Assembly: GCA_963758525.1 (NCBI GenBank)
Contig: CAVWVQ010000003.1
Span: 1,056,001 to 1,120,000 of the forward strand
DNA: 64,000 nucleotides
Direction: 5' to 3'
Origin: an uncultured Phycisphaerales bacterium
Lineage (GTDB): Bacteria > Planctomycetota > Phycisphaerae > Tepidisphaerales > Tepidisphaeraceae
Below the pieces are notes generated by a model that saw nothing but the letters and a program-made list of their open reading frames with translations, was not told the origin of the DNA and searched no databases. Shown here piece by piece: positions 4,973 through 45,534 of the stretch (position 1 is the first letter of the stretch; the number at the start of each line of letters is the position of its first letter). A program made the position numbers and the translations under genes.

Positions 4973-5310
4973 GATCCACCACCTTTCAGTGGATAAGCCA
5001 GGGGGTGCTCGGCGGGGTGAAAGCTGCGCACAACCGGTCGAGAAAATGGCCTTTTCGGATCGAGGCGGAGCTTGACGTACACGTCGATGCCGCTTTCAAC
5101 ACAGCCAAAAATCCAGACCTCCTTGCCGTCCTCATCCCTGTCCATTTCAGGGCCCAGGCAAAAATCTCCCGGGCGCAGCGAGCAAATACGCTCAATGGCC
5201 TGGGCTTGAGTCATATTCAGAGCCACCAAGCCTTGAATGTTCTTTGGCGTTTGTCGGAACTCAACCTTCGATCCGAACTCCACGCAGACACGGCTTGTGA
5301 CCCGGGTCAC
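4969..5310 (-). CDS. MqsR-like toxin, probably 5'-truncated
   Basis: KNIQGLVALNMT..DFCLGPEMD..VWIFG..VYVKLRL..SFHPAEHPL; coupled to antitoxin; start lies inside RAYT end motif. Confidence 0.75.
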   Translation of the reverse strand: MTRVTSRVCVEFGSKVEFRQTPKNIQGLVALNMTQAQAIERICSLRPGDFCLGPEMDRDEDGKEVWIFGCVESGIDVYVKLRLDPKRPFSRPVVRSFHPAEHPLAYPLKGGGS

Positions 5311-5323
5311 AAGGTCACAAGCC
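5292..5323. repeat. Downstream end motif of RAYT-1 (GGTCACAAGCC), partly duplicated and inverted
   Basis: ggcttgtgacccgggtcacaaggtcacaagcc; perfect 20-bp palindrome 5294-5313; inverted relative to 6073 motif. Confidence 0.8.
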
Positions 5324-5344
5324 TATTGCCGCCACGGTTTGCCT

Positions 5345-6037
5345 TCAGCCTTTTCTCGGCGACTTCGATTTCGGCGGTCGGCCGATGGGGCGCAATGAAC
5401 TTTCCGTGCCCAGCGCCCGGGCCGTCCGTTGCGACCAGCGATCATCGCCGTAAGGCCGCCCACGATCAATCGCGCGGCGCAGTGCAGCCAACTCTTCCTC
5501 GGTTTCCGCCCGGTTCAGCAGGGCGGTCCATCTCACGGGTCTTTCCACCGGCCATGCGGTCAGCATCGGAGCGACCGAACAGCTGCGGTCGTCCCTGGCC
5601 CACAGCGAATTCCACCGCCAGTCCTGCGCCTTCGCCACCAGATCGGCCCGCAAGGCATTGCGCTCCACGTACCGGCAGACACTCAGAAAATGACCGTCCT
5701 GCTGAATCGGAAAACTCCGGAACCGGCCCTGGTACAGATGCCCGCGCCCCACGCTGTGGCGATGGGCATGCCAGCGGGCCGCGTGGGTCATGGTCAGCCA
5801 TTGCATAAACCGCGATAACTGGCCGTCGGTTTTGGGCCATAGCACCAAATGGAAATGATTGGGCATGAGGCAATACGCGCAGAGCCGCATTCCCCGGTGT
5901 ACATCCAGCGCCTCGACCAGCACCTTCTCGAACGCCTGGTAGTCCCCGGCATCCTCGAACAGCTTGAGCTTTCCTGGCGCGCGGTTCATCACATGATACG
6001 CCAGGCCGCCAGGGGAGAAGCGAGGTTTGCGAGCCAT
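5345..6037 (-). mobile_element. REP-associated tyrosine (HUH/Y1) transposase, RAYT-1
   Basis: YHVMNRA, AYCLMPNHFHL (HUH), GHLYQGRFRS, RYVERNA (catalytic Y), WRWNS. Confidence 0.93.
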
Positions 6038-6072
6038 CAACCCAGTGTATCAGCCCATCAATCGCAAGGAAA

Positions 6073-6092
6073 GGCTTATGACCCCCTTTCTT
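6073..6092 (-). repeat. Upstream end motif of RAYT-1 (AAGAAAGGGGGTCATAAGCC)
   Basis: GGTCAYAAGCC shared with 5313-5323, 29756 and 45496. Confidence 0.8.
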
Positions 6093-6688
6093 CACTCGCG
6101 GCGACGTTTCCCGCCGCGGATTACTCGGCCGACACTGTCGGCGCAATCCGCAAATCACTGAAGGCAGCGATGGTAAGCGAGGGCTTGTTTTCCGATGAGG
6201 CGGACGCGCTGCTGAACACATGGGAAACCTCTTACTTTCGACGTCCCGGACTGCGACTGTTCTTTCTGTGCCCCGACGACTGGACGAACCGCGTGTTGCC
6301 TTTGCATCTGTCGGTTGATGCCGATATCAAGCGCGTCATGATCGGGCGAATCGAGATTGTGACGCCCGAGCAGCGCCAACTGCTCTCCCGCATCGCCACG
6401 GGACCGGCCTCCAATGCCGGCCAATGGAACTGGGTCTCCGATGCTCTGAAGCAGGCGGGCGGCGGGCGCGACGACTATTACCGTGAGGACTGGTACCTGG
6501 GCGCGATAGACGGACGCACCAGCTTGCAGAGTCTGCACGTCCAGATGCCCGATGACTATCGCGAGTACCTGCAACTCGGCCGCTTCCGCAATACGCTGAT
6601 CCTGGACGAAGCCCATCGCCGCCCAACTACCGCGTTAACGGCTTTCATCGATAATTACTCGCTTGAGGCAACCGGGGGGAAGCGGTGA
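6093..6688 (+). pseudogene. 3' fragment of a conserved-looking hypothetical protein, cut at RAYT-1 end
   Basis: Protein-like frame LVSEGL-type MVSEGLFSDEADALLNTWETSYF..RVMIGRIE begins right at the motif with no start/RBS. Confidence 0.6.
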
Positions 6689-6745
6689 TCCATCGAGCCT
6701 GTCTATTTCCGGGAGAGCCATGCTCCGAATCTGTTTGGTGGGAAG

Positions 6746-7092
6746 AACTAGGTGACGCGAGTCTTAATATCGCGCATGCCACGTCAGTTTTGCCCTTTCA
6801 GCTTGCTTTTTGGCTTCCGCCATCCCGGCGGACGGCCGCGGGGGCGGAGGCTCTGCTGCAAGTGTAGCTTCTGGGCCGTCCGCTGCACCCATGGCGGGCT
6901 TCCAAAGGGACGGGAACGCTCGATGCTGAGCGTCACCGCCTTCTCCTCTGCCGCCGTCTGCGGCTGGTTCACCAGTTCCAGCCAACCGCAGGGCCGATCG
7001 ATCGGCCAATCCGAAAGCAGGGACGCCAGCGCGTGGCCGCGATGCTGCCGGGCAAAACAGCTTCCCCATCGCCACTCCTCGGCCCGCTCCAC
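6746..7092 (-). mobile_element. RAYT C-terminal remnant plus end motif ATATTAAGACTCGCGTCACC
   Basis: VERAEEWRWGS..WPIDRP..RPFGSPPWV..SLRPRGRP aligns with the C-terminal half of both intact RAYTs. Confidence 0.85.
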
Positions 7093-7147
7093 CAGGCTCT
7101 GTCTGAAAACCCTAAGTCCTCACGACGCCTCAGAATGGCTTTGGCCG

Positions 7148-10255: not shown

Positions 10256-10402
10256 ACAGGTCCGATATACTTTTTCACCTGATCGATTTCAAATCCACGC
10301 TGAGTTTGTGACTGTCGGCAATCACGTCTCCGCGGGTTGCTCACCCCCCACAGAAGATACTGCCACAGAGGCGTTGGTGTCTTCCGGAGGGGAATGCGGA
10401 TT

Positions 10403-10521
10403 AACTAAAGGTGACGCGAACCTTAATATTGCGTATGCACCGTCAGTTTTGCCCTTCCTGCTTGCTTTTTGGCTTCCGCCATCCCGGCGGACGGCCGCGG
10501 GGGCGGAGGCTCTGCTGCAAG
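10403..10521 (-). mobile_element. Short RAYT 3' tail plus end motif, near copy of 6746-6862
   Basis: Shared run gcttgctttttggcttccgccatcccggcggacggccgcgggggcggaggctctgctgcaag and ggtgacgcga..ttaatat. Confidence 0.88.
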
Positions 10522-10562
10522 AAGGAAGTGATACGGAAGGAAGTGATACGGGGACGCAGCTA
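10521..10562 (+). repeat. RAYT-2-type end motif with tandem duplicated flank (GAAGGAAGTGATACG)x2-GGGACGCAGCTA
   Basis: AGTGATACGGGGACGCAGCTAG identical to copies at ~37818 and ~37922. Confidence 0.88.
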
Positions 10563-11730
10563 GTGTAGTGTATCATAAATAAGCTATCCTAATTATTAGT
10601 TGCGTGTCTGATCCTCCAACAGGAGGATAACCCCTTGCGCATCGCACCCGATGTCACCGTCACGGATGAACAACGTAGAGTTTTGGAACAGTGGTCGCGC
10701 GGCCGAAGCACGCCGGCACGACTGGTCCTTCGCTCGCAGATTATTTTGCAGGCTGCCGAAGGCGTCGCCAACAACCTGATCGCGCAGTCGCTGGAGACCG
10801 ACCGGTTGCTGGTCGGCAAGTGGCGCAAGCGATTCATCGAGAAGGGTCTGGAAGGAATCAAAAAAGATGCTCCGCGCGGGGGCCGTCCGCCGGTGAGTCG
10901 CAACGCGATGACCGCTCGCATCATCGAGTGGACCACCCAGAAAAGGCCGAAGAACGCCACGCATTGGAGTTGCCGGACGCTGGCCAGGGAATTGGGGGCC
11001 AGCTCCGCGATGGTCAATCGCGTGTGGCGGGCCAATGGGCTCAAGCCGCATCTGATCCATACTTTCAAGTTGAGCAACGACAAACAGTTCATCGAGAAAG
11101 TCGTGGACGTCGTGGGCTTGTACCTCAATCCGCCGGAGCACGCGTTGGTGCTCTGCGTGGATGAGAAGACACAGATTCAGGCTTTGGATCGCACTCAGCC
11201 GTCATTGCCGCTGAAGAAGGGACGATGCGGGACGATGACGCATGATTACAAGCGGAACGGAACGACGACGCTCTTTGCGGCACTGAATGTAGCCGAGGGA
11301 AAACTCATCGGCACATGCATGGAGAAACATCGGCATCAAGAGTGGATCAAGTTCCTCAGGCAGATCGACGAGCAGACGCCAGCGGACCTGGACTTGCACC
11401 TGATCGCAGACAACTACTCCACGCACAAGCACCCGAAAGTGAAGAGCTGGCTCAAGCGTCATCCACGCTTTCACATGCACTTCATCCCGACCAGCAGCTC
11501 GTGGCTGAATCTGGTGGAGCGGTGGTTCCGGGAGATCACGGACAAAAGAATCCGTCGTGGCGTTTTCCGCAGCGTGCCGGAGTTAACAGACGCGATCATG
11601 GCCTACATCGCAGCGCACAACGAGAACCCCAAGTCATTCGAATGGACGGCAAAAGCCGAGGACATTATTGTAAAAGTCCGACGGGCGCGCGAGGTGCTGA
11701 ATAAGAGTGTATTAGCCTGACACACTACAC
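10563..11730 (+). mobile_element. IS630-family insertion sequence
   Basis: TIRs GTGTAGTGTATCA / TGACACACTACAC; TA duplicated at 10561-62 and 11731-32 (CTAG target). Confidence 0.95.
10635..11720 (+). CDS. IS630 DDE transposase
   Basis: HWSCRTLA, VDEKTQIQAL, THDYKRNGT, IADNYSTHK, SWLNLVERWF. Confidence 0.96.
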   Translation: MRIAPDVTVTDEQRRVLEQWSRGRSTPARLVLRSQIILQAAEGVANNLIAQSLETDRLLVGKWRKRFIEKGLEGIKKDAPRGGRPPVSRNAMTARIIEWTTQKRPKNATHWSCRTLARELGASSAMVNRVWRANGLKPHLIHTFKLSNDKQFIEKVVDVVGLYLNPPEHALVLCVDEKTQIQALDRTQPSLPLKKGRCGTMTHDYKRNGTTTLFAALNVAEGKLIGTCMEKHRHQEWIKFLRQIDEQTPADLDLHLIADNYSTHKHPKVKSWLKRHPRFHMHFIPTSSSWLNLVERWFREITDKRIRRGVFRSVPELTDAIMAYIAAHNENPKSFEWTAKAEDIIVKVRRAREVLNKSVLA

Positions 11731-11732
11731 TA

Positions 11733-12139
11733 GTTGATAGCTTGAAATCTGACGGATTGAGCGTCAGCAAATGGGTGAGACCTTCGGCCTTCATCAAGGC
11801 AACGAGTTTCGTGTCATGGACTTGAACCCCGAAAACGGAGTGGGCCATGACGAGCCGCTTCCATTCCGCGTAGCTGGCGGCAGAATCAGTGAGCACTTCG
11901 ACGGCGAGTTCAATGAGGGCCAGCCGACGTTGTGCTTCCTGGGTCGTCAGACCGAACCCGCCACGGGCGGTGGCAGGCCTGGTCGTGACGTTCCAAAACT
12001 CCACGACATTTTGCATTCCGCAATAGAATGTGTCGCCCCGGCCCTTGAGAAGGTCCAGGGCATCAACCACGTCTTGATGTTGCGGGTCTCCTGGATGCAC
12101 CAGCCTCAGCAAGATTCCCGTGTCGAGCAGATACCGCAT
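11733..12139 (-). CDS. VapC/PIN-domain toxin with natural C-terminus replaced at RAYT motif/IS630
   Basis: YLLDTGILLR..QNVVEFWNVTTRP..VHDTKLVA..LLTLNPSDFK, then reads into the motif and IS (to 11603). Confidence 0.85.
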
Positions 12140-12306: not shown

Positions 12307-12402
12307 CGCACATCCCTCGAAAATGAGCTTATCATCGACGCTCCCCTTGGTCCATAATGGAGAGAACTAAAGTGGTGTGGCGAGCAACCGAATCCGGCCG
12401 GT

Positions 12403-12593
12403 AGCGGGGACGCTGGGAGGCAGCCAAGCGCGGCCGGCCGAAAAAGCCTCCCGGCACCAAGGCTGTGCCGACGCTCATTACCGTCGATCCTCAACTCCTC
12501 CGCCGTGCCGACGCCTATGCGAAAAGAGCCGGCCTCAGTCGCTCCCAGCTTTTTTCCGACGCTCTCCGTCGGCGAATTGAAATCGCGACGTGA
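12403..12593 (+). pseudogene. 3' fragment of RHH antitoxin, paralog of 39107-39403
   Basis: Nucleotide match to ~39213-39403 (AAKRGRPKKPPGTKAVPTLITV..ADAYAK.AGLSRSQLFSDALR). Confidence 0.85.
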
Positions 12594-16971: not shown

Positions 16972-17032
16972 GCGTCCCGTTATTGGTCTGCGTCCCGTTA
17001 TTCGTCAGTTGGATATTAACGCTCGCGTCACC
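16972..17032 (+). repeat. Stacked RAYT-type end motifs: GCGTCCCGTTATT x2 and GATATTAACGCTCGCGTCACC
   Basis: 16972-84, 16990-17002; 17012-32 matches the reverse complement of 6751-6771. Confidence 0.75.
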
Positions 17033-17037
17033 CGCAC

Positions 17038-17364
17038 TTGTTCCGAGGCCTTCGCGTTGTCTCGGCCTCGATCAGAAGCTACTGTTATTCATATGGAAAA
17101 CGTAACACGTACTGCACTGACGGATGGACGGATCTGAAAATTGAACGGGGTCGCAGATCTTCCGGACAAGTCCTGCGGTTTACGGTTCTGTTGCCAACGA
17201 CCAGAATCGTTGGCGTGGCAGAAATCCAGATTCCGTTAATGGAGGGCTACAGCCTGGCGGACAAGGTCGGTGAAGCCGAAGCAAAGAGCATTGAAGAGGA
17301 CCTTCAGGCGCTAGCCGTGCGCGTTGCGGATGCGGTTCAGAGCAGCGTCAGCAAGGCAAGCTAA
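17038..17364 (+). pseudogene. Probable 3' gene fragment starting at end motif
   Basis: No RBS; frame opens at the motif and stops 2 nt before the next ATG. Confidence 0.4.
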
Positions 17365-20075: not shown

Positions 20076-20104
20076 AACGCGCGGGCAATGAGCAAGGAGA
20101 TGCC

Positions 20105-21016
20105 ATGAACTCTGATCAAACCCGCGAGATCCTGAAGAAGGTTCGCCAGATTGCAATTCGCACCAACCGGCTCGTCACCGATTCGATGGCCGGCGAATAC
20201 CATTCGGTCTTTCGTGGCCGGGGCATGGACTTCGACGAAGTCCGGGAGTACGTCCCCGGCGACGAGGTGCGGACGATTGACTGGAATGTGACGGCTCGCG
20301 CCGGTCGGCCATTCGTAAAGAAATTCACCGAGGAACGCGAGCTGACGATTCTGCTGCTGGTGGACCTCAGCGCCTCCGGCAACTTCGGATCGACGCATCA
20401 GAGCAAGCGCGAGCTGGCCGCGGAGCTGGCGAGCGTTCTTGCCTTCTCCGCCATCCGCAATGGCGACAAGGTCGGGTTGATCCTCTTCACCGACCAGATC
20501 GAGCAATTCATTCCCCCCAAAAAAGGCCGCCGTCACGTTTTGCGTGTGATACGCGAAATTCTCTACTTTCAGCCGCAGCAACGCGGCACGAACGTGGCGC
20601 AAGCGTTGGACTTTGCGAACAGTGTCACGTCGCGCCGCGCGGTGGTGTTTCTGATTTCCGATTTTCAATCCAGCGGGAATCAGCGCGCCGCGTTAAGCGT
20701 GCTTCGGCGTGCGATGCGACAGACGCGTCAACGGCACGATCTGGTGGCAGTGCGGATCCAAGACCCGCACGAAGCCAGGCTGCCCGAGGTCGGGCTGCTC
20801 GCCATGGAGGACGCCGAGACGGGGGAACTGATCGAACTCGACACGCTGAATCCGCAGGTCCGGGCGCAGTTTCAACTGGACGCTCAGGAACGTCTCACTG
20901 AACTGCGGCGGACCTTCAACGGCGAGGCGGTTGACTCGCTGGAACTGATCGCGGGTGAACCGTATGTGCCAGCGCTCAAGCGATTCTTCGAAACCCGCGC
21001 AGGGAGACAACAATGA
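20105..21016 (+). CDS. DUF58 domain protein
   Basis: GRGMDFDEVREYVPGDEVRTIDWNVTAR, EEREL, FLISDF. Confidence 0.95.
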   Translation: MNSDQTREILKKVRQIAIRTNRLVTDSMAGEYHSVFRGRGMDFDEVREYVPGDEVRTIDWNVTARAGRPFVKKFTEERELTILLLVDLSASGNFGSTHQSKRELAAELASVLAFSAIRNGDKVGLILFTDQIEQFIPPKKGRRHVLRVIREILYFQPQQRGTNVAQALDFANSVTSRRAVVFLISDFQSSGNQRAALSVLRRAMRQTRQRHDLVAVRIQDPHEARLPEVGLLAMEDAETGELIELDTLNPQVRAQFQLDAQERLTELRRTFNGEAVDSLELIAGEPYVPALKRFFETRAGRQQ

Positions 21017-22713: not shown

Positions 22714-22745
22714 ACAAGCACGCAAAACACAACCCTGGTGACATT

Positions 22746-29645: not shown

Positions 29646-29755
29646 GCTGGTGCGAGACGGTAGGGTCGTCCACCAATTCGAATTAGCAACGGCCGTAGCT
29701 CCTCAACGTGCATCCATGAGCGACAAGTGACGATCGGCCTTACTCGTCCGCGGGA

Positions 29756-29803
29756 AAGAAAGGAGGTTCATAAGCCAATCCTTTAAAGAGGTCTACCCCC
29801 CTT
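29756..29803. repeat. Isolated RAYT-1-type end motif (possible mini-element)
   Basis: aagaaaggaggttcataagcc vs aagaaagggggtcataagcc at 6073; followed by ggtctacccccctt. Confidence 0.6.
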
Positions 29804-30044
29804 CTCGAAGTTTTACCGAGGACCGTTTGGTTGGCCCGTAATTCACGCCGTATTCCTGAAATTTACGCCCCGCTCGCGCATCATATGCGGTAGAGGAAGA
29901 TGGAGTGATTGCAAGTTGATGATGGCAAGTGTCCTGTATTTAGGTCTCGCTGGGAACGATTGCTTGTCGAGCAGCCCACGCAAATTTGCAACATTTTGCG
30001 GACAGCCTTCCGCTCGCGGAGAATTCCTGCACCGAGGTGAGAAC

Positions 30045-33000: not shown

Positions 33001-33839
33001 AACTATTGATCACGCGTATGGCGCATGCAAAGGAATTTGCCCGTCGCCCGGGTCAGGCGGAAGCAATCGACAAGGCGTGCCAAGCCCTCATGCTGCTGAA
33101 GCCAGGACCGGAAATTGGTGAGCACCATGCGGAGACGTTACCGGCTGCGCCAGGGGCCGACTTCCTGAAGATGGGACTCGCCGATGCCTGCGAGGATGTG
33201 ATCTGCTTTGACGCGGACCTGGAGCTGGCGCACAAAAGGTGGATGGGCGCCGTGGCGCTGATGATCCAATCTCCCGGGACGATGATGGCAGACGATCTGG
33301 CAAGAGCCAGCGCGACGGGGGATCTTGCGCAAATATCGAAGATCAAGTCAATGCTTGAGCGTCTGGAAGAGGCGAAACGCGGTATTCCGACGACGTGGTA
33401 TCGAGAGGCCATCAAGGACCATGACCCCGGCAAACCGCCGGCGCGCTCAGCGCCGCTGGCCCAGGTCATTCACGATGTGCATCTAAGCTCCGCCCGCGTG
33501 GGCGGAGGACTTAACTTCCCGTTCGAGGTTCGGACGCTGATCGCTCCTTTCCGAAGCGGTGAAGCAATGGCGTCGGGGACCATCGAGCAAATCTTTCAGG
33601 GAGACGAAATGGTCTATGCCGCGATGGATCTCCCCGCGGGAAACCGCGGTCAAGTTGGAGACGAGCGCTTCATCGGAGCGGCCACGTATAAGAATATGCT
33701 GTCAGCCGGCTCAGGCGGGCTCTGGCATTTTTCAAAGCCGGGTCAATACACGTTGAAGCTAATCGTGATCAATGGTGACGGATGGAATGATGTTCTCGAC
33801 GCATACGAGGAACCATTTACGGTTGGCCCCGCCTCGTAA
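30045..33839 (+). CDS. Large exported protein, CsgG/HfaB-like N-terminus, TPR-like and beta-rich regions
   Basis: Signal-like segment; LVDRSAIASVLKEQQL..KLGRLLKADFLV. Confidence 0.65.
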   Translation: MKTGRQTLKRGIRLNPWLLFLLMTISSLGRLGAAASIDTTQPSAGVVRSAVAVVWNPSDSLAGVPQPELIELKLAHWGIFRLVDRSAIASVLKEQQLAAALGPSDGSNRIKLGRLLKADFLVILRSSGDVSARKMEITVCETHGGLRIATERIPLGTDPEQDAAAAVKLIQPALERGTAGITTIFAVPPFQNLDLEQTFDSMQDAYALVIQQSLLSHKGVLVVELAEAQAISQELALSNDQAVHRRAPIYVVGEFRHGTGTKSPTITITLKCTQAGNDLLPPRSQTVGNGSVPELLLAASENIFSASRRTANPATTPAAEEEQLPTEAKREAALLDERGEAFALVGDWERALPLLEASLLVQPNQPWVHAAAFKVLGHLPLGLDHYYRTLPGWGDKDQWDSANTAAIVGFRARQIDHLEAFLRSTIPCDTYKHYGPCFKIIRASQWEYHTHVRDLAAQDLALRRRQRDMFFDVFEAKVRAHATDAYACGLWGRELGQFLYPQETLEEKVQTKLRAIKLFKDAPIAGKGENIIYVICRYDELRGMKGLPWPQLDRLLTAAEALNSPNVSTIVARIRAEGPDFKMHFSTFRYVPPPAAQDTAAYRPLNLTFRDSNGLALANHAQIFDWKPAGKGADVAIGRDALFVMTEKDVLQQIYKADTNAFDFSQICFDGKYVWAPVVQADPSVLIIDPLAGKVVAKLTAANGVPAMNIRAVAAAISPGHACLSGGFGRGWIAWASFDPTSGPTFKVFWEARDETGNAMTDPHFAFSPLYAVTLEGKSSDTNGAAVQRVILEGVAKTGMPLPLIIDPVSSSVTVLSTGGAPFGHPATELFADGDSLYWIDLSQGYSSGRLVQWGLPDFKARTLAPSVPGCGPMAFYDGKLNVAGGLGQWITSRNPAGPYVILGGDMPGRLAFRRICISNFYGLLLIPDERQHDLGVYAVQLPPDVLMKHSADPEETARRMTMSDVAAALKAADDHYAQELQRARELLITRMAHAKEFARRPGQAEAIDKACQALMLLKPGPEIGEHHAETLPAAPGADFLKMGLADACEDVICFDADLELAHKRWMGAVALMIQSPGTMMADDLARASATGDLAQISKIKSMLERLEEAKRGIPTTWYREAIKDHDPGKPPARSAPLAQVIHDVHLSSARVGGGLNFPFEVRTLIAPFRSGEAMASGTIEQIFQGDEMVYAAMDLPAGNRGQVGDERFIGAATYKNMLSAGSGGLWHFSKPGQYTLKLIVINGDGWNDVLDAYEEPFTVGPAS

Positions 33840-34655: not shown

Positions 34656-35000
34656 CGGATGGCAGATCTTTGACGGAATCGGGTGTGCGATCTGTGGACG
34701 GCTTTGGGTCTACCGCCCGGCGACATGGGTATGACAAGGGGTTAGGTATGACCGGGGAGGTGTGACAAGCGGGTCATCATCAGCGCACCCGGTCCGGCCG
34801 ATCCTTGAACGGCGTAACGATGGCGCCGGGCGCATCGCCCAGTGGGTCGCCGAGCTGGCCGACGAAGGCGGCGATCAGCTCGTCCATCGTCGCGGGTTCC
34901 TGGAGCAGCTTTGCCTGATCGCGATGCCGCCTCGTAACAACGCTTTTCCTTAGCCGCCGATTGAGTACTACCGATAACGGTCGTATCGTTGATCGGAAAA

Positions 35001-35129
35001 ATGAAAGTGCATACGCGATTCGAATGGGACGAGGACAAGGCCGCGACGAATGCGTCGGTGCACAATGGAGCGCCCGGGCCGCCAATCGAAAGCAGACAAA
35101 AGAATATGCAACGTTCGCGTCACCTTTAG
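35001..35129 (+). pseudogene. BrnT-toxin remnant ending at end motif TTCGCGTCACCTTTAGTT
   Basis: MKVHTRFEWDEDKAATN; motif ~35114-35131 matches the reverse complement of 10403-10420. Confidence 0.65.
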
Positions 35130-35139
35130 TTGTTCCCGT

Positions 35140-37243: not shown

Positions 37244-37586
37244 CGTGCTCCCTTGCAAGATGAAGAGCATCTTGGCGCTGCTCCCCTGCAGCGACAAGAA
37301 GAAGCGAGGGACAATCGCCTGCCTCACAAATGTTTCATTAGTCGCGAAACCGCGCTGCGGAGTAAGGGCACTGCTTCCGCCGAAGCGGCTTTATTTTGCT
37401 GTGCACGTCCAACGTCGCGCACGCGAAGAGGGACACTTCGTACGGGTGTCCGTCTTTGCGTTCCCCGGAGATGCCGCTGCTGCTGGCATCAGAGGCGGGA
37501 TGTTAATGGCAGGAATTTGGCCATGCCATGCCGGGTCCTGAGCGGAAGCATTGAGATGGTTGCGGGTATAATCAGACCATGATCAG

Positions 37587-37670
37587 AAGCTGTTAAGGTG
37601 ACATCCACGAATGGCATTGCCTTAGCCCATTAAAGGCTGTTTTCGCAAAAGCTGTTAAGGTGACATCCAC
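37587..37670. repeat. 22-bp direct repeat AAGCTGTTAAGGTGACATCCAC x2 (RAYT end motif)
   Basis: 37587-608 and 37649-670, just downstream of the RAYT tail stop. Confidence 0.85.
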
Positions 37671-37690
37671 CGTTTTTATTTACCATTTGC

Positions 37691-37798
37691 CTACGTCTTC
37701 GGCCTGCCTCTCGGATTCAGAGTGTACTGCAGCCCCATCCGGCCGGCCATTTTCAGGGTCCAGGGATCGGCGCCGAGCGGCCGGCCGCGCTCGAAGCT
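37691..37798 (-). mobile_element. RAYT 3' tail remnant
   Basis: Manual: SFERGRPLGADPWTLKMAGRMGLQYTLNPRGRPKT*. Confidence 0.8.
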
Positions 37799-37915
37799 GG
37801 GGGAGTGATACGGGGGGAGTGATACGGGGACGCAGCTAGTTTTTATTGACCTGGGATTGGGGTCGGGTTAGCCTTCTGCCGATGCCGCGTCGCCCCCGGC
37901 GGTCTGGTCTACCAC
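37799..37915 (+). repeat. Partial duplicate of RAYT-2 left end, promoter and first codons
   Basis: (GGGGGAGTGATACG)x2, then near copy of 37915-38030. Confidence 0.9.
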
Positions 37916-37984
37916 GGGGGGAGTGATACGGGGACGCAGCTAGTTTTTATTGACTGGGATTGGGGTCGGGTTAGCCTTCTGCCG

Positions 37985-38680
37985 ATGCCCCGTCGTCCCC
38001 GCGTCGCCCCCGGCGGTCTGGTCTATCACGTGCTCAATCGTGCCGTGGGACAGATCGTGATGTTCCGCCGGGACGCTGATTTCGAGGCCTTCGAGCGGAT
38101 CATGCAGGAGGCGCAGGAACTGCATCCGATCCGCATTCTTTCCTATTGCCTGATGTCCAACCATTGGCACTTTGTCGTCTGGCCGGAGCGGGACGGGCAG
38201 GTGACGGCCTTTTTCCGCTGGCTGACCCACACCCACGCGCTGCGCTGGCGGGTATCGCATCACACGGTTGGTTACGGGCATCTCTATCAGGGCCGATTCA
38301 AAAGTTTTCCGGTTGCGCGCGATGGGCATCTGCTGAGCGTCTGCCGATACGTGGAACGCAATGCCCTGAAAGCACAGTTGGTGGAGGGGGCGGAGCAATG
38401 GCGGTGGTCGAGTCTTTGGGTCAAGCAGCACGGAACCAAACAGCAGAAGTCGCTTTTGTCTCCTTGGCCGGTGGAGCGTGGACGGAAGTGGACCGAGTTG
38501 GTAAACCGCGACTTAGGCGAAGCCGAGCTGAAGGCGATCGAGGCCAGCGAGCAGCGCGGCCGGCCGCTGGGCAACGCGGCGTGGATCGCCAAGACCGTCG
38601 CCGAACTCGGGTTGGTCCATACCGTTCGTCGCGAAGGGCGGCCGGCAAAGGTTCAGGAAGGCGTGAAGCGTGAACGGTGA
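37985..38680 (+). mobile_element. REP-associated tyrosine (HUH/Y1) transposase, RAYT-2
   Basis: YHVLNRA, YCLMSNHWHF, GHLYQGRFKS, RYVERNA. Confidence 0.93.
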
Positions 38681-38691: not shown

Positions 38692-38720
38692 CTAGCTGCG
38701 TCTACCCGGTATCACTTCCT
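38692..38720 (-). repeat. Downstream end motif of RAYT-2, inverted relative to upstream motif
   Basis: ctagctgcgtctacccggtatcacttcct, approximately the reverse complement of aggaagtgatacggggacgcagctag. Confidence 0.85.
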
Positions 38721-38774: not shown

Positions 38775-39107
38775 ATGACCTTTTCGTGGGACGACGTGAA
38801 CCGCGATCATGTCGCGCGGCACGCCGTGAGTCCAGCGGAGGCAGAGGATGTGGTCAGTGGTGCAGAGGCTCCGTTCCCGCAAACTATCGAGGACGACAAG
38901 TTTGTGGTGTGGGGAGCGACCGAGTCGGGCCGGTACCTTCAGGTAATTTACGTGCTCAAGATGCCGGCTGAGGTGACGTATGAGAGCCTCGCCGTGGAAG
39001 ACTGGATGGACGTCGAGGCAGGCGAGGTCACGCAGGTGATTCGGGTGATCCATGCAATGGATATGACGGCGTCGATGAAGCATCGGCTCCGCAAACGCCG
39101 GAGGTAG
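38775..39107 (+). CDS. BrnT-like toxin
   Basis: FSWDDVNRDHVARHAVSPAEAEDV..WGATESGRYLQVIY..IRVIHAMDMT. Confidence 0.75.
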   Translation: MTFSWDDVNRDHVARHAVSPAEAEDVVSGAEAPFPQTIEDDKFVVWGATESGRYLQVIYVLKMPAEVTYESLAVEDWMDVEAGEVTQVIRVIHAMDMTASMKHRLRKRRR

Positions 39108-39403
39108 TGATGAAAGCGAAGCAGGCCCGGACCAACGAAAACGATTTTGCGGCGATGGACCGGTTGGCCCGCAGCATCACCCCCAACAAGCTGCGTCCGC
39201 TGACCGCCCAACAGCGGGGACGCTGGGAGGCGGCCAAGCGCGGCCGTCCGAAAAAGCCCCCAGGCACCAAGGCCGTGCCGACGCTCATTACCGTCGAACC
39301 TCAACTGCTGCGACGTGCCGACGCCTATGCGAAAAAAGCCGGCCTCAGCCGATCACAGCTCTTTTCCGACGCCCTGCGCCATCGAATCAGCGTCGCAGAA
39401 TGA
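39107..39403 (+). CDS. RHH-type antitoxin
   Basis: RGRPKK..ITVEPQLLRRADAYAKKAGLSRSQLF; coupled to toxin. Confidence 0.75.
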   Translation: MMKAKQARTNENDFAAMDRLARSITPNKLRPLTAQQRGRWEAAKRGRPKKPPGTKAVPTLITVEPQLLRRADAYAKKAGLSRSQLFSDALRHRISVAE

Positions 39404-39445
39404 AGATCCGGCGAAAAGGCTCGTCTTGCGCTACTTGAATCAGCG

Positions 39446-40113
39446 TCAAATCCTCAATTCCTTTGCGCTCGCGTCGCCCGCGTGCGATACACAGAGCAGT
39501 CGACCAGCGGGCCCGGGACTGATGATCAGGGTTGCACCGCGTCGCCACTCTCGGGCGAACCAGTCGTGCACGTGACCTTGAACGACGGCAATGGGCTGTA
39601 GCTCCTCAACAAGCCGTGCGACGCAGTCGTACGTCCAGGATACGGGCACATCACCGCAGGGAAGCTCCGGCAGTTTCGGCGGATAGTGGGTCAGTAAAAT
39701 GAGCTTGTCCTGTGCCAGGAGCTGGCGAGAGGCTTGTCGGGCCAGCGCACGACACTGTGGCTCCAGGTCACTCTCGCCTGGGAGGTCATAGTAGCGTTTC
39801 GGCGCAAAGCCGATGCCGGCGATCCAGAGGCCGGGGCCGAGTCGGCACAAGCGCCGGTCAGATCCTGGGCCGCGCGGAAGAACCCGCCGGGATCGAGATA
39901 GTCGTGATTTCCCCTGACGGCGAATACCGGAACCCCCGCCGATGCCGCCCAGTGCCGCGCTGCCGGATCGTCATCGTCCTCGATCAGCGTCGGCGCGTCA
40001 TAGACATCGCCCGCGTGCAGCACAGCAGCGATGCCTGGCTCGCCCCATCGCGGAAGCGATGAGCCGTGAGTATCGGAACAGCAGCCAAGCATGATTTCAT
40101 GGTCATTGCTCAC
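39446..40113 (-). CDS. Metallophosphoesterase, frameshift near 39850
   Basis: SDTHG, HAGDVYD, RGNHD in one frame; THYPP, GHVHD in the next. Confidence 0.85.
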
Positions 40114-40184
40114 TGTTTTCCCTCCGCCGAACGGCCATTCTTGCGGGATCGTGTGTACGAGGGGCCAACGTGCGAACAGTAAGG

Positions 40185-40775
40185 CTATTTGCCTCTTCCG
40201 CGCCTGCGCCGGTCGAACACTTTCCAGACTTCATAGGCCATGGCACCGATTCCGCCGACGGCAAAGCCGCTGGCGAAGGTGTTCCTCTTCGACAACGCCT
40301 CCTTTTCGTCGAGCAGGCGCAGCGCCTCCTCGGCGACCTCCCGTCGGTGCTGCAAACGGCGCATTTCGCTTTCGTGGGCCTCGTTGGCTTTCAGCCATTT
40401 CGGATCACGATATTGCCGCCTGACCAGCCGATCCAGTTCCGCATCAGTCGATTGGCTGTACCCGTCGAGGATCCAGTCTTCCCAGTTTGCGCCTTCGATC
40501 AATCGCCAGCTCATGTCGGCATACTCAAAGACCCCGATCCGGCTTCCGCACTGCAGGATCTCATCGTCGCCGCGCAATTCCACGGCTCGGTCCCACAACT
40601 GATTGATGGCGTCCTCCGGACTGTCGCCCTGACGGCGCAACTTGTAGTTGCCTTTCTTTTTCAGAATGACAATGGACGATTCGAGGCAATATCCGCCATC
40701 GACTTCGACGACAGTCGCACCGGGGTCAAGTTGCTGAATGTAAAGACGCTTTTGGGTCGAATTGAAGTTGCTCAT
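40185..40775 (-). CDS. Hypothetical protein with C-terminal TM/coiled coil
   Basis: RBS GGAGG, co-oriented with neighbours. Confidence 0.6.
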   Translation of the reverse strand: MSNFNSTQKRLYIQQLDPGATVVEVDGGYCLESSIVILKKKGNYKLRRQGDSPEDAINQLWDRAVELRGDDEILQCGSRIGVFEYADMSWRLIEGANWEDWILDGYSQSTDAELDRLVRRQYRDPKWLKANEAHESEMRRLQHRREVAEEALRLLDEKEALSKRNTFASGFAVGGIGAMAYEVWKVFDRRRRGRGK

Positions 40776-40837
40776 CAGGTCCTCCAGGAGATGCAGATCT
40801 TTTTTCGATGCTGTCCGAGGCTTTCAAGACATTACGG

Positions 40838-42001
40838 TTAGGTTTCGGTTGATGTCTCCGAAGCCCGCTCATCCGGCGGCCAGAAAAACGCCACCGGTCC
40901 CGCCGGGAAGATCAGGTTTTCCCATGAGAGGGCCGGCTGCCAGTACATCTGGTCGGATTCCGCGGTGATCGACCGGCACTCTGTCGCCCGCCGGGTCAGC
41001 CGGTGCAGGTCGATCGGCCAATCGCCGCCAAGGCCCTTCCACATTGCATAAGCAGCCATGGCGGCCTCCCACCCGCCCTCGCTCAAATCCGCCGGCAGAT
41101 CGAGCCCCAACAAGATCGCCAGGATCTGGATCCGCACCCGTGGTGAATGCAATTCGGGCGTCTGGACCAGGTGCGTGTAGCACTCCTGAGGCAAAGTCTC
41201 CGTCACCGGCAAATCGGGCCACCGCCTCCGCAACAGCGTTACCAAGGCAATCGCGGCAAGGGACGAACGGCACTCGCCCTGAGACGGGCCCCAATAGAAT
41301 GGGAACTCATCATACTCACATTTTCGATGGAACGGAGCGTCGTTGATCCAGTAGTCGGCGGCCCGCCAACCCTCCCGCCCGGCTCCCACCGCCAGCCACT
41401 CCGCCGAGCCGATGCCCAGGGGTCGTGGCCCCTCGGAAAAAGCGCCGACAATCTGGTGCGGGCTAAAGAACATGCGGAATTCGATACCGACGGCCTTCCC
41501 TGCCTCGATCGTCAAAACGGCGATGACTGGAAGCACCGCGCGCTCGGAATGGCCCAGCACTTGACCGGTGATCCGTGACGCGCCCTTCGATGACTGGCCT
41601 TTCGCAACCTCGGTCGCTCTGCCAATGAGAGAACTGGCATCGAACGCCGGTCCCGCCGGCAGCCCCATGGCCACCAAAAGCGAGTAAGCCTCCTCGATAG
41701 ACGCATGTCCCATCAACCGGGTCGGCTTCAAGTTTCCCGCGACCGCGTGGCAGACCAGTTGCCGGAGGTTCGCCACGCCCTCTCGCGCAAGACCCTTGCG
41801 CGCCCTGACGGAAATGGTGTGATCGACGATTGAGGCATCCAATCGCGCATCCGTCAGATCGATGCCGGTTCCCTGGCACGCCTGGCAAACCTCTCCGATC
41901 GTGGCCGAAAGATTCCGACCCGAGGTGCAGGCCCCGCACGTTCCCCAGGAGGACGTTCCGCTGACCTGCGACACACGCTTGGATGTTTCTTCTTCTGCCA
42001 T
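40838..42001 (-). CDS. Zn-finger + RNAP alpha-CTD-like + DUF429-like fusion
   Basis: CGAC..CQACQGTG; ISVRARKGLAREGVANLRQLV..MGHASIEE..MGL; VTETLP..WEAAMAAYA..IDLH..FFWP; RBS AAGGAG. Confidence 0.6.
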   Translation of the reverse strand: MAEEETSKRVSQVSGTSSWGTCGACTSGRNLSATIGEVCQACQGTGIDLTDARLDASIVDHTISVRARKGLAREGVANLRQLVCHAVAGNLKPTRLMGHASIEEAYSLLVAMGLPAGPAFDASSLIGRATEVAKGQSSKGASRITGQVLGHSERAVLPVIAVLTIEAGKAVGIEFRMFFSPHQIVGAFSEGPRPLGIGSAEWLAVGAGREGWRAADYWINDAPFHRKCEYDEFPFYWGPSQGECRSSLAAIALVTLLRRRWPDLPVTETLPQECYTHLVQTPELHSPRVRIQILAILLGLDLPADLSEGGWEAAMAAYAMWKGLGGDWPIDLHRLTRRATECRSITAESDQMYWQPALSWENLIFPAGPVAFFWPPDERASETSTET

Positions 42002-42208
42002 ATGAATCTCCTTTCATTGCGATTTGTTAAAGGTTCAATCTCCGCCCCGGCCTTGAGTGGCGGATCAGCGCAGCCGGGGCTATTCAGATGCCAAAGAACC
42101 GCCGCCGGCTGGAACCGGCGAGCGCGCACCGCTGGCGGCGCGGGTATCACCAAAGGAGAAATGGAGCGACAAGGACCGACAGACGAAGGCGCTGGCCGAC
42201 ATCCCCTG

Positions 42209-42349
42209 CTAAAGCTTTCGCACATCCCAGATCACGGCCCGCGGGAACTGCGACTCAATCAGCCGCCGAGCATCGTTGCTCGTTCCCGCCTGTACCGTCT
42301 GGGCGTAACGCTCGTTGTCGATCGTAAAGGTGACCTCGTATGTCTGCAT
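42209..42349 (-). CDS. 46-aa small protein
   Basis: Manual: MQTYEVTFTIDNERYAQTVQAGTSNDARRLIESQFPRAVIWDVRKL; RBS GGAGG. Confidence 0.7.
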   Translation of the reverse strand: MQTYEVTFTIDNERYAQTVQAGTSNDARRLIESQFPRAVIWDVRKL

Positions 42350-42380
42350 CGCGAACCTCCCTCATTAGGCTGATGCAGTA

Positions 42381-42413
42381 AATGTACAAGGCGAAGCGGA
42401 CAAAAGGTGTCCG
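42381..42413 (-). promoter_or_regulatory. Candidate WYL-activated promoter CGGACA-N5-TGTCCG-N10-TACATT
   Basis: Palindrome 42397-42413, -10 at 42381-86; same palindrome at 45211. Confidence 0.7.
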
Positions 42414-42434
42414 GTGGTCACTGCCGGCTTATTA

Positions 42435-43238
42435 TTACGAATCTCGGACTGTATTCCATCGATCCACACCCGCGGCGAGCAACGCGGGATCCAGTGAAAT
42501 GATCGCCCCCACATGGGCCCTTTGTCCGGCGGCGACGTCGACGAACACGACCCCGCTGTGCAGCCGGCCGTTCAATGTTCGTACTCCCGCCTCAAACGCG
42601 GCGCGTGCGGCGTTCTTCATTGCGTAGCAGAAGACACAAGACGCGCCCGGCTTTCCGCTAAAGAGCCAGGACCGAACCGGCTCGAGTAACAATTCCCAAT
42701 CGGCCGCGTGCAGGTCTCCATCGTCGGCGCTTTTGTCTGCGATATAGGTGTAGGGGTCCATCGTAAAGAGCCACGGCCGATCCAATCCCGGTGGCGCGTG
42801 CAGATGATCGATCGCTGCCCGCCAACTTCCGTGGATTACCTGCATAGCCGTTCCACGCCAGCGTGCCCGAAGTTTATGAAAGGTGGAATTCTTCTTTTCG
42901 ACAAGCGTTCCGGCTAGTTCCCGTCCGCCGATCAGGGCTTTGGCAACCTCGGCGCTATTCGGGTAGCGGTCCGGTTCGATGAGTCGGGTACATCGATACG
43001 CGCGGAGAACCGCCGGTTCATCCGCTGGCGGATTTGCATTTAGAGCCCGACTCCACCAAAACTCAAATCGCGCCCGCTGATCCCCGCTCTTGCTAATCGA
43101 TCGTCGAAACGCGTCAAACGGTTACATGGAATATGTGCAGACGAGGTGCAAGCCGACCTCACCCGCTGAAAACAGGCGGGACATCAACTCCGCTTCAACG
43201 GAGTGCTGCAGGAGATTGACGTCGTTGCCACGTGCCAT
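42435..43238 (-). pseudogene. RlmJ-like SAM-dependent methyltransferase with in-frame TAA at 43122-24
   Basis: RGNDVNLLQH, RYPNS, LFTMDPY in one frame across the stop. Confidence 0.55.
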
Positions 43239-43266
43239 GCAAAATCTGCTCGAACGAAGCCCAACG

Positions 43267-43503
43267 CTATAACAAATCTTTATGTCGTCCCTTGCCACAG
43301 AACCTGCCCCCACCACCTCGGTTCGGGCATTTGCACTGAAAACAACTGCTACTATTGACCCCGTGGTGATATCCGCAGTCGGTGCAGACCATTTCGACAA
43401 CATGTTGGCAGTGGTCCGTTCCCATCCGCCCTGTGTCTTTCAACACCTGCTGTTTATTCGGATTTATATAGCCGGGCATCGTTGTTCGGGAGGGCATGAC
43501 CAT
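43267..43503 (-). CDS. Small Cys-rich zinc-ribbon protein
   Basis: GYINPNKQ..GTDH..CTDCG..KCP. Confidence 0.6.
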   Translation of the reverse strand: MVMPSRTTMPGYINPNKQQVLKDTGRMGTDHCQHVVEMVCTDCGYHHGVNSSSCFQCKCPNRGGGGRFCGKGRHKDLL

Positions 43504-43527
43504 TCCTTTCGTTCACGGCCGCGACTT

Positions 43528-44358
43528 CTAAGATGGTAAATCTACACTTGGCGAATAGCAGTCACCATCAATCCAAACTTGAGCCGTATTCCCAGCTCGC
43601 TCCAACCGTGCGCGATTCACGTTGAGCGCGTCCTTTGCCCATTGCTGCCAAAGCTGCCAGGGTGGGAGGAAGAAATAGCCGCCATGTGGATCACCGACGG
43701 CGGTATATGAACCCTGCCACACACAAATCGCGGTAAGCGCACACACGAGGCCGGCCTGCTCATCATGTTGGTTATTCTCGGCAAGCGCCCGCCAGAACCC
43801 TTCGTGCGGCCAGTTCAAATGTTGTTTGATAGCAGACATCGTCCGAGCGCGAAATCCTTCGAGCAACCACGAGAACTTCTCCCCGCGCTGTAGCTCCGGC
43901 ACGCCCTCGTAAATCATGTCGTCGAGTAAAATCCCGAGGAAGGCGTTGGGGAAGGCCTCGACTATGTTCTTACCCGGGTAGACGCGCGGAATTTCTCGCC
44001 TGAGCCCGTTCCCGAGCGTTTCCTGCTCGAATTGCTCCGCCGTATCACAGCCGCCTCGACGCAGACCTTGCCCTGTTCTGGCAACCTGACTGAAGCCGGG
44101 CTTGCAGCGGGTCTGAAACGTGCCCCATGCAAATAAGCACTCGACTCCGCGCAGCTGATAATGCACTGGTCCCGGGGCTAAAACAGGGCCATCGATCGCC
44201 AGCACATCCCATTTTCCTCCCGAGGGCAATGCGGTCACGCGGCTGCGCTTGTCAATGAATGTGTGGGTCAGGACAAATCCTGCATCGCCTGTTGAACAAA
44301 TGCCCGATGTCGGGTCCTTGAGAGTCAGACCGACGTCAATTCCAAGGAGATTTGGCAT
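43528..44358 (-). CDS. DUF429-like RNase H-fold nuclease
   Basis: LLGIDVG, LAIDGP, VEAFPNAF, HDEQAGLVCA. Confidence 0.75.
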   Translation of the reverse strand: MPNLLGIDVGLTLKDPTSGICSTGDAGFVLTHTFIDKRSRVTALPSGGKWDVLAIDGPVLAPGPVHYQLRGVECLFAWGTFQTRCKPGFSQVARTGQGLRRGGCDTAEQFEQETLGNGLRREIPRVYPGKNIVEAFPNAFLGILLDDMIYEGVPELQRGEKFSWLLEGFRARTMSAIKQHLNWPHEGFWRALAENNQHDEQAGLVCALTAICVWQGSYTAVGDPHGGYFFLPPWQLWQQWAKDALNVNRARLERAGNTAQVWIDGDCYSPSVDLPS

Positions 44359-44428
44359 AGTGCCTTTTTATTTTATGGGGGCTCGTATAGTTGCTTTCAC
44401 CACCACCACTATCACGTATTGTGCCATG

Positions 44429-45185
44429 TTACGTCTCTGACAGTGCGCAACCGTGGGTTGCGGCGATCTGGCGAGCTGCAAGACGGACGCTCCTCCGCAA
44501 TTCTCTCGGCTCCATCACCTCCACGCGCCCGCCCCATGCCAAGACGTCGCGTTTTACAGCGTATAGCGCGCCCGTATCGAACTCAACAATGATCCTGCCC
44601 TCCGGATCCCGGCTGATTTTCTGCGTCGAATTCGAGCGGTACTCCTCGCCATAGGCGGCGGCTTCCTTGCAGAAACGCAGCTTCACCCGGTGAATCGGCC
44701 CCGTGCTCTGGTCGCAAAGTCGTCGGCTCCTCCAGCGCGTTGAGCAACGTATCCCAGATCTGGCGAGGCACCGGGTCTACCGGGGGGCCTTCAAACCGGA
44801 TCTTCTTCGCCATCACCTGGTAACCCGTCCGGGTCTCCGGCGGGAGCAGGTCCAGAAGCCGGCGATACATGTCAGCCAACTGGGCATGCACCGGCGTCCC
44901 TTTGAATTGCTCGGCGGCGTGCAGCCCGATGAGCAGCGCGAGCCGATCGGCCGTGCTGACCATCGTCCCAGGCAGAGACGTCACCTCGCCTTCGTAATAC
45001 CAGGCTCGCTGGTGTCGGTCGTACCGCACCGGCAGCCGATATTTTCCGGCCAGCACCTCTTTCAGGTCGCGGCGAACGGTGCGTTCATCGACTCCAAATT
45101 CCCGTGCGGCTTCAGCAGCGACAACCCGCCGACCGCCTCGGAGCCAACGGTCCAGCGTTAGAATTCGGGAATTCATCTTCGACAC
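44429..45185 (-). pseudogene. HTH-WYL-WCX regulator with internal deletion of the WYL domain
   Basis: AREFGVDERTVRRDL wHTH; breaks after EEPTTLR (~44715); WCX VKLRF..VLAWGGRVEVMEPRELR in another frame. Confidence 0.8.
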
Positions 45186-45209
45186 TGCCTCAAGATCTAC
45201 CGGAGGGCG

Positions 45210-45228
45210 CCGGACATTTCGTGTCCGG
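45210..45228. promoter_or_regulatory. Palindrome CCGGACA-N5-TGTCCGG upstream of WYL gene
   Basis: Direct reading; repeated at 42397. Confidence 0.7.
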
Positions 45229-45322
45229 CTCTCCCACCGTATTGAATATCACGACCACTGACCGCCGCCCGTCAATTTCCATCGCGCCGGCTCAAACATC
45301 TTTCGCCATCTCCTCGAGCATA

Positions 45323-45451
45323 TCATCCGCGCACTTGGGGGCGACGGCACGGCACCGCCAAGGCTTGCCGCGCATAGTCGTTCAAGTCTCCGGTGACGTG
45401 TCGGCGAAGCGGGGCTTCAAGCTCCACGGGCAATTCGACGGTGAGATGCAT
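45323..45451 (-). pseudogene. UPF0175-like antitoxin N-terminal fragment
   Basis: MHLTVELPVELEAPLRRHVTGDLNDYARQALAV, then diverges. Confidence 0.45.
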
Positions 45452-45495
45452 ATCGCCCAAATAATAACATGCCGGGAAGTGTGACAAGGGGCACG

Positions 45496-45534
45496 GCGGT
45501 CATAAGCCAATAGTTGAATTTGGCTTATGGCCGC
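45496..45534. repeat. Hairpin mini-element built from RAYT-1 ends
   Basis: gcggtcataagccaa-N9-ttggcttatggccgc. Confidence 0.75.

Follow-up and report, generated by a model that had tools for sequence, protein, structure and literature searches.

Transposases of the type associated with repetitive extragenic palindromic (REP) sequences (RAYTs, REP-associated tyrosine transposases) are accompanied by different types of short motif. The REPtron of Escherichia coli is built around a single-copy, domesticated gene and hairpins with a GTAG foot, and its enzyme TnpA-REP (structure 4ER8) cleaves at C|T and carries out strand transfer at sites both near to and distant from the motif (PMC8266576). A second layout, the TIRtron, was named in 2013 by Di Nocera, De Gregorio and Rocco: a RAYT-like tyrosine transposase gene (TIRYT) has terminal inverted repeats (TIRs), in the majority with a core like GGGGWSAS, instead of GTAG REPs, solo, dimeric and grouped TIRs occur elsewhere, and there are several types per genome (PMC3733652). 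Here we describe elements of this kind in 64,000 nucleotides of DNA from an uncultured Phycisphaerales bacterium (contig CAVWVQ010000003.1, positions 1,056,001 to 1,120,000; ‘the window’). Comparisons across its genome suggest that the ends of these elements become joined to unrelated DNA, often in the middle of genes.

TIRtrons have been equated with subclass 2.1 of the TnpA-Y1 transposases (Quentin 2018, PMC6006769), which is the same as RAYT group 1 of Bertels 2017 (PMC5581495). This is the largest RAYT-like group, found in 14.9% of species, and its proteins are of ∼238 aa with an NH[VYF]H motif and a C-terminal extension, class 2 as a whole having the tyrosine signature Y---NP; a C-terminal helix-turn-helix (HTH) is reported for TIRYT examples and for subgroup 2.1.2 (PMC6006769). 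Group 1 is described as the most insertion sequence (IS)-like of the true RAYT groups, with 6.3% duplicates (PMC5581495). Literature searches found neither a substrate nor a reaction for subclass 2.1.

Transposases and terminal inverted repeats

The source genome (G000) is a 6-contig assembly of 6.47 Mb, in which the window corresponds to G000:C3:1056001-1120000. Two genes in the window, each encoding 231 aa, match Y1_Tnp (PF01797) above the cut-off. The parts of their elements are as follows, in window coordinates:

5292..5323, no strand assigned: right end of the RAYT-1 element, family B; a TIR core with an 8-nt re-copy, plus a partial copy in inverted orientation; lacks the usual outer arm
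5345..6040, minus strand: RAYT-1, a TIRYT of family B with the motifs NHFH and YVERNA; element of about 800 bp
6073..6096, minus strand: left TIR of RAYT-1, outer tip at ∼6095-6096
37799..37950, plus strand: left TIR of the RAYT-2 element, family C; re-copies of 14 nt and ∼104 nt lie outside the full copy
37985..38680, plus strand: RAYT-2, a TIRYT of family C with H60, H62 and Y122; predicted fold closest to TnpA-REP
38692..38720, minus strand: right TIR of RAYT-2

RAYT-2 has the histidine motif NHWH and the same tyrosine motif as RAYT-1. In an alignment of 55 sequences H60, H62 and Y122 are invariant, and a structure model based on these sequences (predicted local distance difference test, pLDDT, 94) has 4ER8 as its best fold match, followed by ISDra2/IS608, with extra helices predicted beyond the catalytic core; a sequence search of the Protein Data Bank with the transposase gave no match, whereas the fold search did. 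Both proteins score below the cut-off of the REP-transposase model NF047646 (57 and 49 bits against 80). They have the ∼230 aa, the NHxH motif, the C-terminal extension with a serine motif and the absence of REPs that are described for subclass 2.1 (PMC6006769, PMC5581495), but read Y-V-E-R-N-A rather than Y---NP; among 53 homologues the signature is NP in 37 and NA in 15. When a C-terminal HTH (Bac_DnaA_C, HTH_23, HTH_28) was sought with Pfam in the window transposases, Y1_Tnp was the sole match. Subgroup 2.1.1 has another conserved extension, and the window proteins likely belong to subclass 2.1. All 18 same-family genomes searched (a count that includes the unpublished G004) encode the protein, and metagenomic homologues with enough flanking DNA have inverted repeats of at least 12 bp in 52 of 58 cases, compared with 1 of 58 in the control.

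A preliminary description of the window had noted that each transposase gene is bracketed by its own short inverted motif. This is the case, and comparison of contexts across the genome identifies these 11-mers as the cores of TIRs of ∼25 bp. In the window, GGTCAYAAGCC is found at 5292 (minus), 5313 (plus), 6073 (minus) and 45498 (plus), GACGCAGCTAG at 10553, 37829, 37933 and 38692, TCGCGTCACC at 6751, 10410, 17023 and 35115, and TGGATGTCACC at 37597 and 37659; a further TIR variant, CGTCCCGTTATT, found at 16973 and 16991, is behind the sites originally placed at 16972 and 17012. Each subfamily has one TIR type, with the cores GGTGACATCCA (A), GGGGTCATMAGCC (B), GGGGACGCAGCTAG (C) and GGTGACGCGAAC (D), and there are several rarer types. 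The left TIRs of both window genes fit GGGGWSAS at 7 of 8 positions (GGGGTCAT, GGGGACGC), and families A and D read GGTGACAT and GGTGACGC at the position of this core. The elements are TIRtrons, and since TIRtrons with this core were named in 2013 (PMC3733652), their layout is not novel.

Six single TIRs folded alone gave no significant hairpin (z from -1.5 to +1.0), so the absence of a REP-type hairpin holds; GTAG inside the right TIR of RAYT-2 is one chance occurrence, without a hairpin. The head-to-head pair at 45470-45540 does fold (z -6.4), and 29745-29815 does not. As proposed earlier, these systems differ from canonical REPtrons: they share the fold of TnpA-REP, but are multi-copy with linear TIRs in place of a single-copy gene with GTAG-footed hairpin REPs (PMC8266576), each subfamily has its own TIR, and the elements stack. 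The characters of IS200/IS605, namely Y---Q, a length of ∼150 aa, hairpins in subterminal position and clean insertion on the 3' side of a constant tetranucleotide, are likewise absent.

Copies and junctions across the genome

Manual merging of the 42 genomic matches to the transposase gave ∼39 loci of copies and remnants, with up to 99% identity between copies, compared with a mean of 1.9 and 49% given for subclass 2.1 (PMC6006769, PMC5581495). Homology between copies extends over ∼765 bp in family A and 800 bp in family B, and ends at the tips. Nine family probes found 86 ends in the genome and 1 in a triplet-shuffled genome; with 2 chance in-gene matches removed, 84 TIR ends remain. Neighbouring pairs within 6 kb number 20, against 1.3 expected, and 18 of the 20 are co-oriented (p=4e-4), across subfamilies that are only ∼45–50% identical in protein within stacks. 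Family A copies are mosaics. Some array neighbours have patches of sequence in common, and the view that local duplicates are absent among them was abandoned.

The 73 outermost ends were compared with the genome's own open reading frames (ORFs), taken as stop-to-stop frames. Protein matches were obtained for 34 ends, and at 13 of these the homology reaches within 0–1 aa of the tip while the subject continues for at least 45 residues; much of the remainder consists of repeats or off-frame matches. The genome-wide motif search that had been suggested as a check places several ends at gene break points, and sequence comparison supports the claim that tips are joined to unrelated DNA in mid-gene. 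The cut genes include hydrolases, IS pieces, an intron reverse transcriptase (RT) and other TIRYTs, and many tips adjoin other mobile DNA or intergenic sequence. At score 12, 31% of TIR flanks and 73% of random positions are classed as coding, so that a coding-potential test cannot show enrichment at gene cuts.

In 9 cases the missing part of the gene was found only in intact genes and never beside another tip; an inversion model, which calls for reciprocal halves at other tips, was rejected. Among 22 two-tip units, a reference for at least one flank was available in 11 (a manual tally), and none of these resumes on the other side of the unit. Apparent target duplications in the 22 units do not exceed 3 nt. 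In 4 of the 22, the right flank repeats DNA from 0.5, 0.8, 5.2 and 6.4 kb upstream: the 5.2- and 6.4-kb duplications involve single-copy genes (by eye, an L,D-transpeptidase and an integron integrase), and the other two a multi-copy repeat. At the five junctions for which there is an uninterrupted reference, shared sequence amounts to no more than 1 nt. An IS5-like element used as control has ordinary TA/CTAG ends, and the family A gene that it interrupts resumes across it. Missing gene halves that are present only in intact paralogs, or duplicated from 5–6 kb upstream, point to deletion or duplication, and do not bear out the capture of intact genes.

Related contigs from moss metagenomes, ∼94% identical to the source organism and possibly one organism seen three times, cease to match the window at 6095 and 10398. 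In 3 of 4 runs they have a D tip joined inside the 5' end of an esterase gene at 4343, with the TIR type of the family D remnant at 6740-7110. The same-genus genomes G001 and G002 have ∼70% DNA identity to the island in G000 and do not share its gene order, so no empty site can be obtained there; the tblastx comparison was mostly noise, and only its long matches were used.

Tips are also re-copied. An exact tandem repeat of 7–73 nt is present at 22 of the 84 TIRs (21 distinct events), compared with 16 of 1500 random control sites and 2 on the inner side of TIRs. The second copy mostly restarts 8–17 nt outside the core, and these exact re-copies suggest a nick site. Longer examples are those of ∼104 nt at window 37799-37930 and 83 nt at C3 303646, and re-copies recur in 9 of 52 independent metagenomic loci.

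Truncated genes in the window

Five genes were originally described as cut at motifs in the window. The genes concerned, with one antitoxin neighbour, are:

4494..4913, minus strand: MqsA-family antitoxin gene (TIGR03830 above cut-off), apparently intact
4969..5292, minus strand: MqsR-like toxin gene, codons 1-14 of 121 absent, broken where an inverted partial TIR has its inner edge
6095..6688, plus strand: gene fragment, the C-terminal ∼197 aa of a ∼460-aa protein
11741..12139, minus strand: VapC/PIN toxin gene, ending at K133 of ∼154
35000..35137, plus strand: BrnT-like 5' remnant fused to a transposase-like tail that ends in a D TIR, tip at about 35137

Three of the cuts stand. The fragment at 6095 starts at the outer TIR tip and aligns to the last ∼197 aa of ORFs of 395-631 aa, its N-terminal half being seen only in an intact paralog. 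The toxin gene at 4969, probably MqsR-like to judge from the neighbouring MqsA antitoxin, resumes directly after GGGTCACAAGC, on the inner side of the partial TIR. The VapC gene stops 7 nt inside a family C TIR that has an IS630 in its CTAG. For the BrnT-like remnant, on the other hand, the fusion lies ∼55 nt inside the transposase-like tail rather than at the motif (both labels by eye), and the ORF at 17038 was rejected as a cut gene: its native start (MENVTRT, the same as in P0163) is retained, ∼60 nt away from the TIR, and the ORF has a frameshift. The motifs reported away from the transposases are real sites, but no gene cut is seen at 29756 and 45496, which are mini-elements.

Toxin–antitoxin and Rhs genes near the elements

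A bias towards toxin–antitoxin and defence cargo, as the window had suggested, was rejected genome-wide. Of 27 PIN, ParE and BrnT loci, none lies within 2 kb of a TIR and 1 within 5 kb, where random placement gives 3% and 5.5%; this search missed the window's own divergent toxins. A different association was observed with Rhs genes. In three arrays of G000 (L012, L015, L026), elements and Rhs-type pieces occur in alternation, with segments of 0.7–1.6 kb between co-oriented copies; for two of these arrays the Rhs label was given by eye, Pfam having no Rhs match. All 9 Rhs-core matches in G002 fall in 3 loci (L033, L034, L041), each with TIRYT copies, and L041 contains an in-frame fusion of a transposase N-terminus with an Rhs piece. 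One of 4 Rhs-core loci in G001 holds TIRYTs (C25; L050), and 1 of 3 in G000 is near a TIR. Rhs orphan modules often start at a TIR tip in three species of the genus, involving subfamilies A, C and E. Orphan cores are only 69–78% identical to neighbouring or paralogous longer Rhs genes (4 pairs), and so are not recent local copies. Furthermore, copies of an internally deleted E element at 4 loci have a left flank of 240–860 nt in common but differ at their right junctions. Against a causal link to Rhs stand the single TIR-associated Rhs-core locus of G000 and the general tendency of Rhs arrays to attract mobile DNA; a literature search for Y1_Tnp linked to Rhs orphans found no paper.

Proposed mechanism and alternative explanations

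The end-joining behaviour of these elements is well supported at the level of sequence, and literature searches did not find it in print. The explanation that we favour, with slightly more belief than doubt, is that multi-copy TIRtrons have tips in mid-gene against foreign DNA because the enzyme handles each end alone. One strand would be nicked ∼10–13 nt outside the GG(G/T)GAC or GGGTCA core, or in some cases at the core itself or at a greater distance, and the 5' tip would stay bound to the enzyme through its catalytic tyrosine. The tip may then pass to a free 3'-OH whose sequence matters little and which is probably located at a replication fork. Extension of the 3'-OH and transfer to the re-copied strand of the same end would give tandem re-copies, while transfer to a foreign 3'-OH would give a one-ended join; if two ends landed apart, the DNA between them would be deleted or duplicated. 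Repeated events could leave stacks, solo TIRs, mini-elements and gene stumps, with homologous recombination between copies probably adding to the shuffling. Flanking DNA may occasionally be carried along, the usual product being a truncated gene and not a captured cassette. The nick-extend-rejoin chemistry is suggested by analogy with other HUH enzymes (PMC8266576), and we infer the nicked strand from the side on which the re-copies lie.

Several observations sit less well with this explanation. For two of the three cuts in the window (MqsR-like and VapC), the break lies to the inside of a partial TIR. Some re-copies begin again at the core, or 7–70 nt beyond the tip; together these observations make one fixed nick site too simple. 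The 11 of 22 two-tip units without a reference possibly include clean insertions, and of the four duplications, the two within a multi-copy repeat (92–95% identity) may be nothing more than ordinary neighbours. Given the mosaics of family A, recombination between copies can also separate flanks. Orientation fits the local GC skew in only 11 of 19 clusters, which leaves the link to replication forks unsupported, and a second copy was found in 0 of 61 metagenomic loci, so stacking is not general. Finally, the esterase joint in the moss contigs may overlap the tip by up to 6 nt, and the tip is possibly not the orthologous copy.

An alternative is gene capture, in which an end and the adjacent DNA would move as a unit, dock in direct orientation beside an existing copy and recruit modules such as Rhs toxin and immunity pairs, in the manner of an IS26 translocatable unit or of one-ended transposition by IS91. 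It would fit the co-oriented arrays with their short segments, the location of all G002 Rhs cores in TIRYT loci with several orphans starting at a tip (likewise at C25 of G001 and in the G000 arrays), the flank retained by the deleted E element, the divergence of orphan cores from longer Rhs genes, and one re-copy that restarts 70 nt outside the tip. However, no single-copy gene was seen to have moved with a tip to a second site, and the E-element flank belongs to a multi-copy repeat family, so that recombination could have spread it. Several Rhs orphans have no TIR, no Rhs core occurs in G012 despite its 36 transposase matches, and among the matches listed no transposase of G010 or G011 is on a contig with an Rhs core (these assemblies are fragmented). 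Toxins of toxin–antitoxin pairs are not enriched near TIRs, and a search of a plasmid collection gave no record matching at 1e-20. We regard gene capture as unlikely, and hold similar doubts about a role of TIRYTs as single-strand HUH recruiters of gene fragments, in which a one-ended join would carry DNA beyond the far end and dock beside earlier copies.

Clean IS-like insertion into accessory hot spots, followed by scrambling through RecA recombination and host deletions, would agree with the mosaic family A copies and with the clustering of other IS around TIRs (distance of up to 2 kb for 2 of the 9 IS5-like copies). It also predicts reciprocal halves beside other tips, of which there were none in 9 cases; host deletions would not stop 0–1 aa from a tip so often, and neither the polar re-copies with their fixed restart nor the stacking of divergent subfamilies is explained, which makes this history improbable in our judgement. 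That the junctions are chimeric joins at short repeats, made during long-read metagenome assembly, is very hard to credit: the same architecture occurs in G001, G002 and G018, independent metagenomic loci have tip re-copies, independent contigs stop or rejoin at identical tips, and repeats of 25 bp are not long enough to confuse long reads. In favour of such an artefact are a contamination estimate of 6% and the fact that the source reads are not among the 5 runs (word share 0.05–0.06), the window junctions being read from the assembly and from contigs of relatives.

Other features of the window and genome

Other elements, remnants and neighbouring genes in the window are:

6740..7110, minus strand: family D element, 3' remnant, right TIR at 6740-6765
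10399..10520, minus strand: right-end remnant of family D (113 nt with 93% identity to 6750-6862), truncated by the following TIR
10521..10563, plus strand: family C TIR with a 15-nt re-copy of its own tip
10561..11733, plus strand: IS630, an unrelated DDE element, inserted in CTAG of the family C TIR
12359..12593, plus strand: partial D tip (12359-12372), then a 5'-truncated copy of the antitoxin gene at 39107-39403
16973..17044, minus strand: solo D-like TIR on two TIR cores of the further variant (a stack); the gene starting at ∼17093 is uncut
29752..29808, no strand assigned: degenerate family-B mini-element, two TIRs head to head
34727..34780, plus strand: B-like solo TIR with partial tip re-copies (read by eye)
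37585..37799, minus strand: family A solo TIR (37585-37610) and 150-nt right-end remnant (37649-37799)
38775..39403, plus strand: BrnT-like/CopG toxin–antitoxin pair adjoining the RAYT-2 right tip, apparently intact
45474..45540, no strand assigned: family B-like mini-element, head-to-head TIRs with a 9-nt loop and a partial re-copy

The family A remnant is 92% identical to A copies and is cut by the C left tip. The truncated CopG-like antitoxin copy at 12403-12593 starts ∼30 nt from the partial D tip and is 89% identical to 39107-39403 over 12403-12577. A second copy of the IS630, 99.9% identical, is at C3 518952-520129. The stretch 17093-17364 is a small conserved gene of no known family, with homologues of 60–107 aa and a frameshift near its start. 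Immediately beyond the B mini-element, a 1307-aa ORF at 29916-33839 has no match in Pfam or NCBIfam. Among the unknown accessory ORFs at 39400-45500, PafC-like HTH and WCX domains on two overlapping frames (44429-45185) make up a broken WYL-type regulator. An ordinary Bat-type operon (MoxR, DUF58, VWA, TPR and BatD) and then a two-component pair occupy 18912-28252. An Rfam search of the window gave no match.

Elsewhere in the genome, a dispersed repeat family of 0.7–1 kb with 80–95% identity (C3 4263774-4264700 and ∼15–20 further loci, as in L018, L023 and L026) often adjoins TIR tips and HTH genes; an Rfam search of it gave no match, and it is possibly a decayed HTH-gene family or a non-autonomous element. 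Locus L011 (C1 197000-211000) resembles an integron array into which introns have moved: it has an integrase-like gene, repeats of ∼100–125 bp and three ends of group II introns (RF00029), and a family B element lies there between a cut intron RT and a partial integrase duplicate. A 178-nt piece at C3 4614592 was rejected as captured DNA; from its GTAA end and sequence it is presumably an IS66-like end, cut by a tip. The GC skew of C3 flips sign every few hundred kb without clear replichores, which may reflect frequent rearrangement.

Comparison with related systems and biological implications

As far as it was available, the TIRtron description deals with layout, and mentions neither mobility of whole elements nor non-rejoining flanks, re-copied tips, stacking or Rhs arrays (PMC3733652). 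The closest functional parallels are the arrays of IS26 and a proposal, since withdrawn, for picocyanobacteria. IS26 translocatable units also form directly oriented copies between unique segments, with no new target duplication and a preference for an existing copy, but through a DDE enzyme and a demonstrated, targeted conservative reaction between near-identical ends (PMC4196232). The window elements, by contrast, have an HUH enzyme, stacks of divergent subfamilies and no single-copy cargo at two sites. In picocyanobacteria, a subclass 2.1 TnpA-REP occurs as full and truncated copies beside prochlorosin genes, within a diversifying gene array; a diversifying role was proposed and the causal claim then withdrawn by the authors (10.1101/2020.03.09.984088). 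No inverted repeats were found there and the genes face the transposase, whereas here the breaks are at TIR tips and the Rhs pieces are co-oriented.

Each enzyme now has a cognate TIR, a predicted nick position and a predicted product, namely one-ended joins that delete or duplicate kilobases, and the function of subclass 2.1 becomes testable with the existing cleavage and strand-transfer assay. An HUH enzyme able to attach a 25-nt tag to free 3' ends may also have value as a tool. If TIRYTs were recruiters of gene fragments, an enzyme class present in ∼15% of prokaryotic species would have an integron-like role without att sites, and would build the orphan toxin and immunity arrays of Rhs loci and other accessory mosaics; a causal link to Rhs would explain how some orphan toxin arrays are assembled. 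If the joining of single ends is correct, these elements would be a widespread source of rearrangement, unlike the clean excision of IS608.

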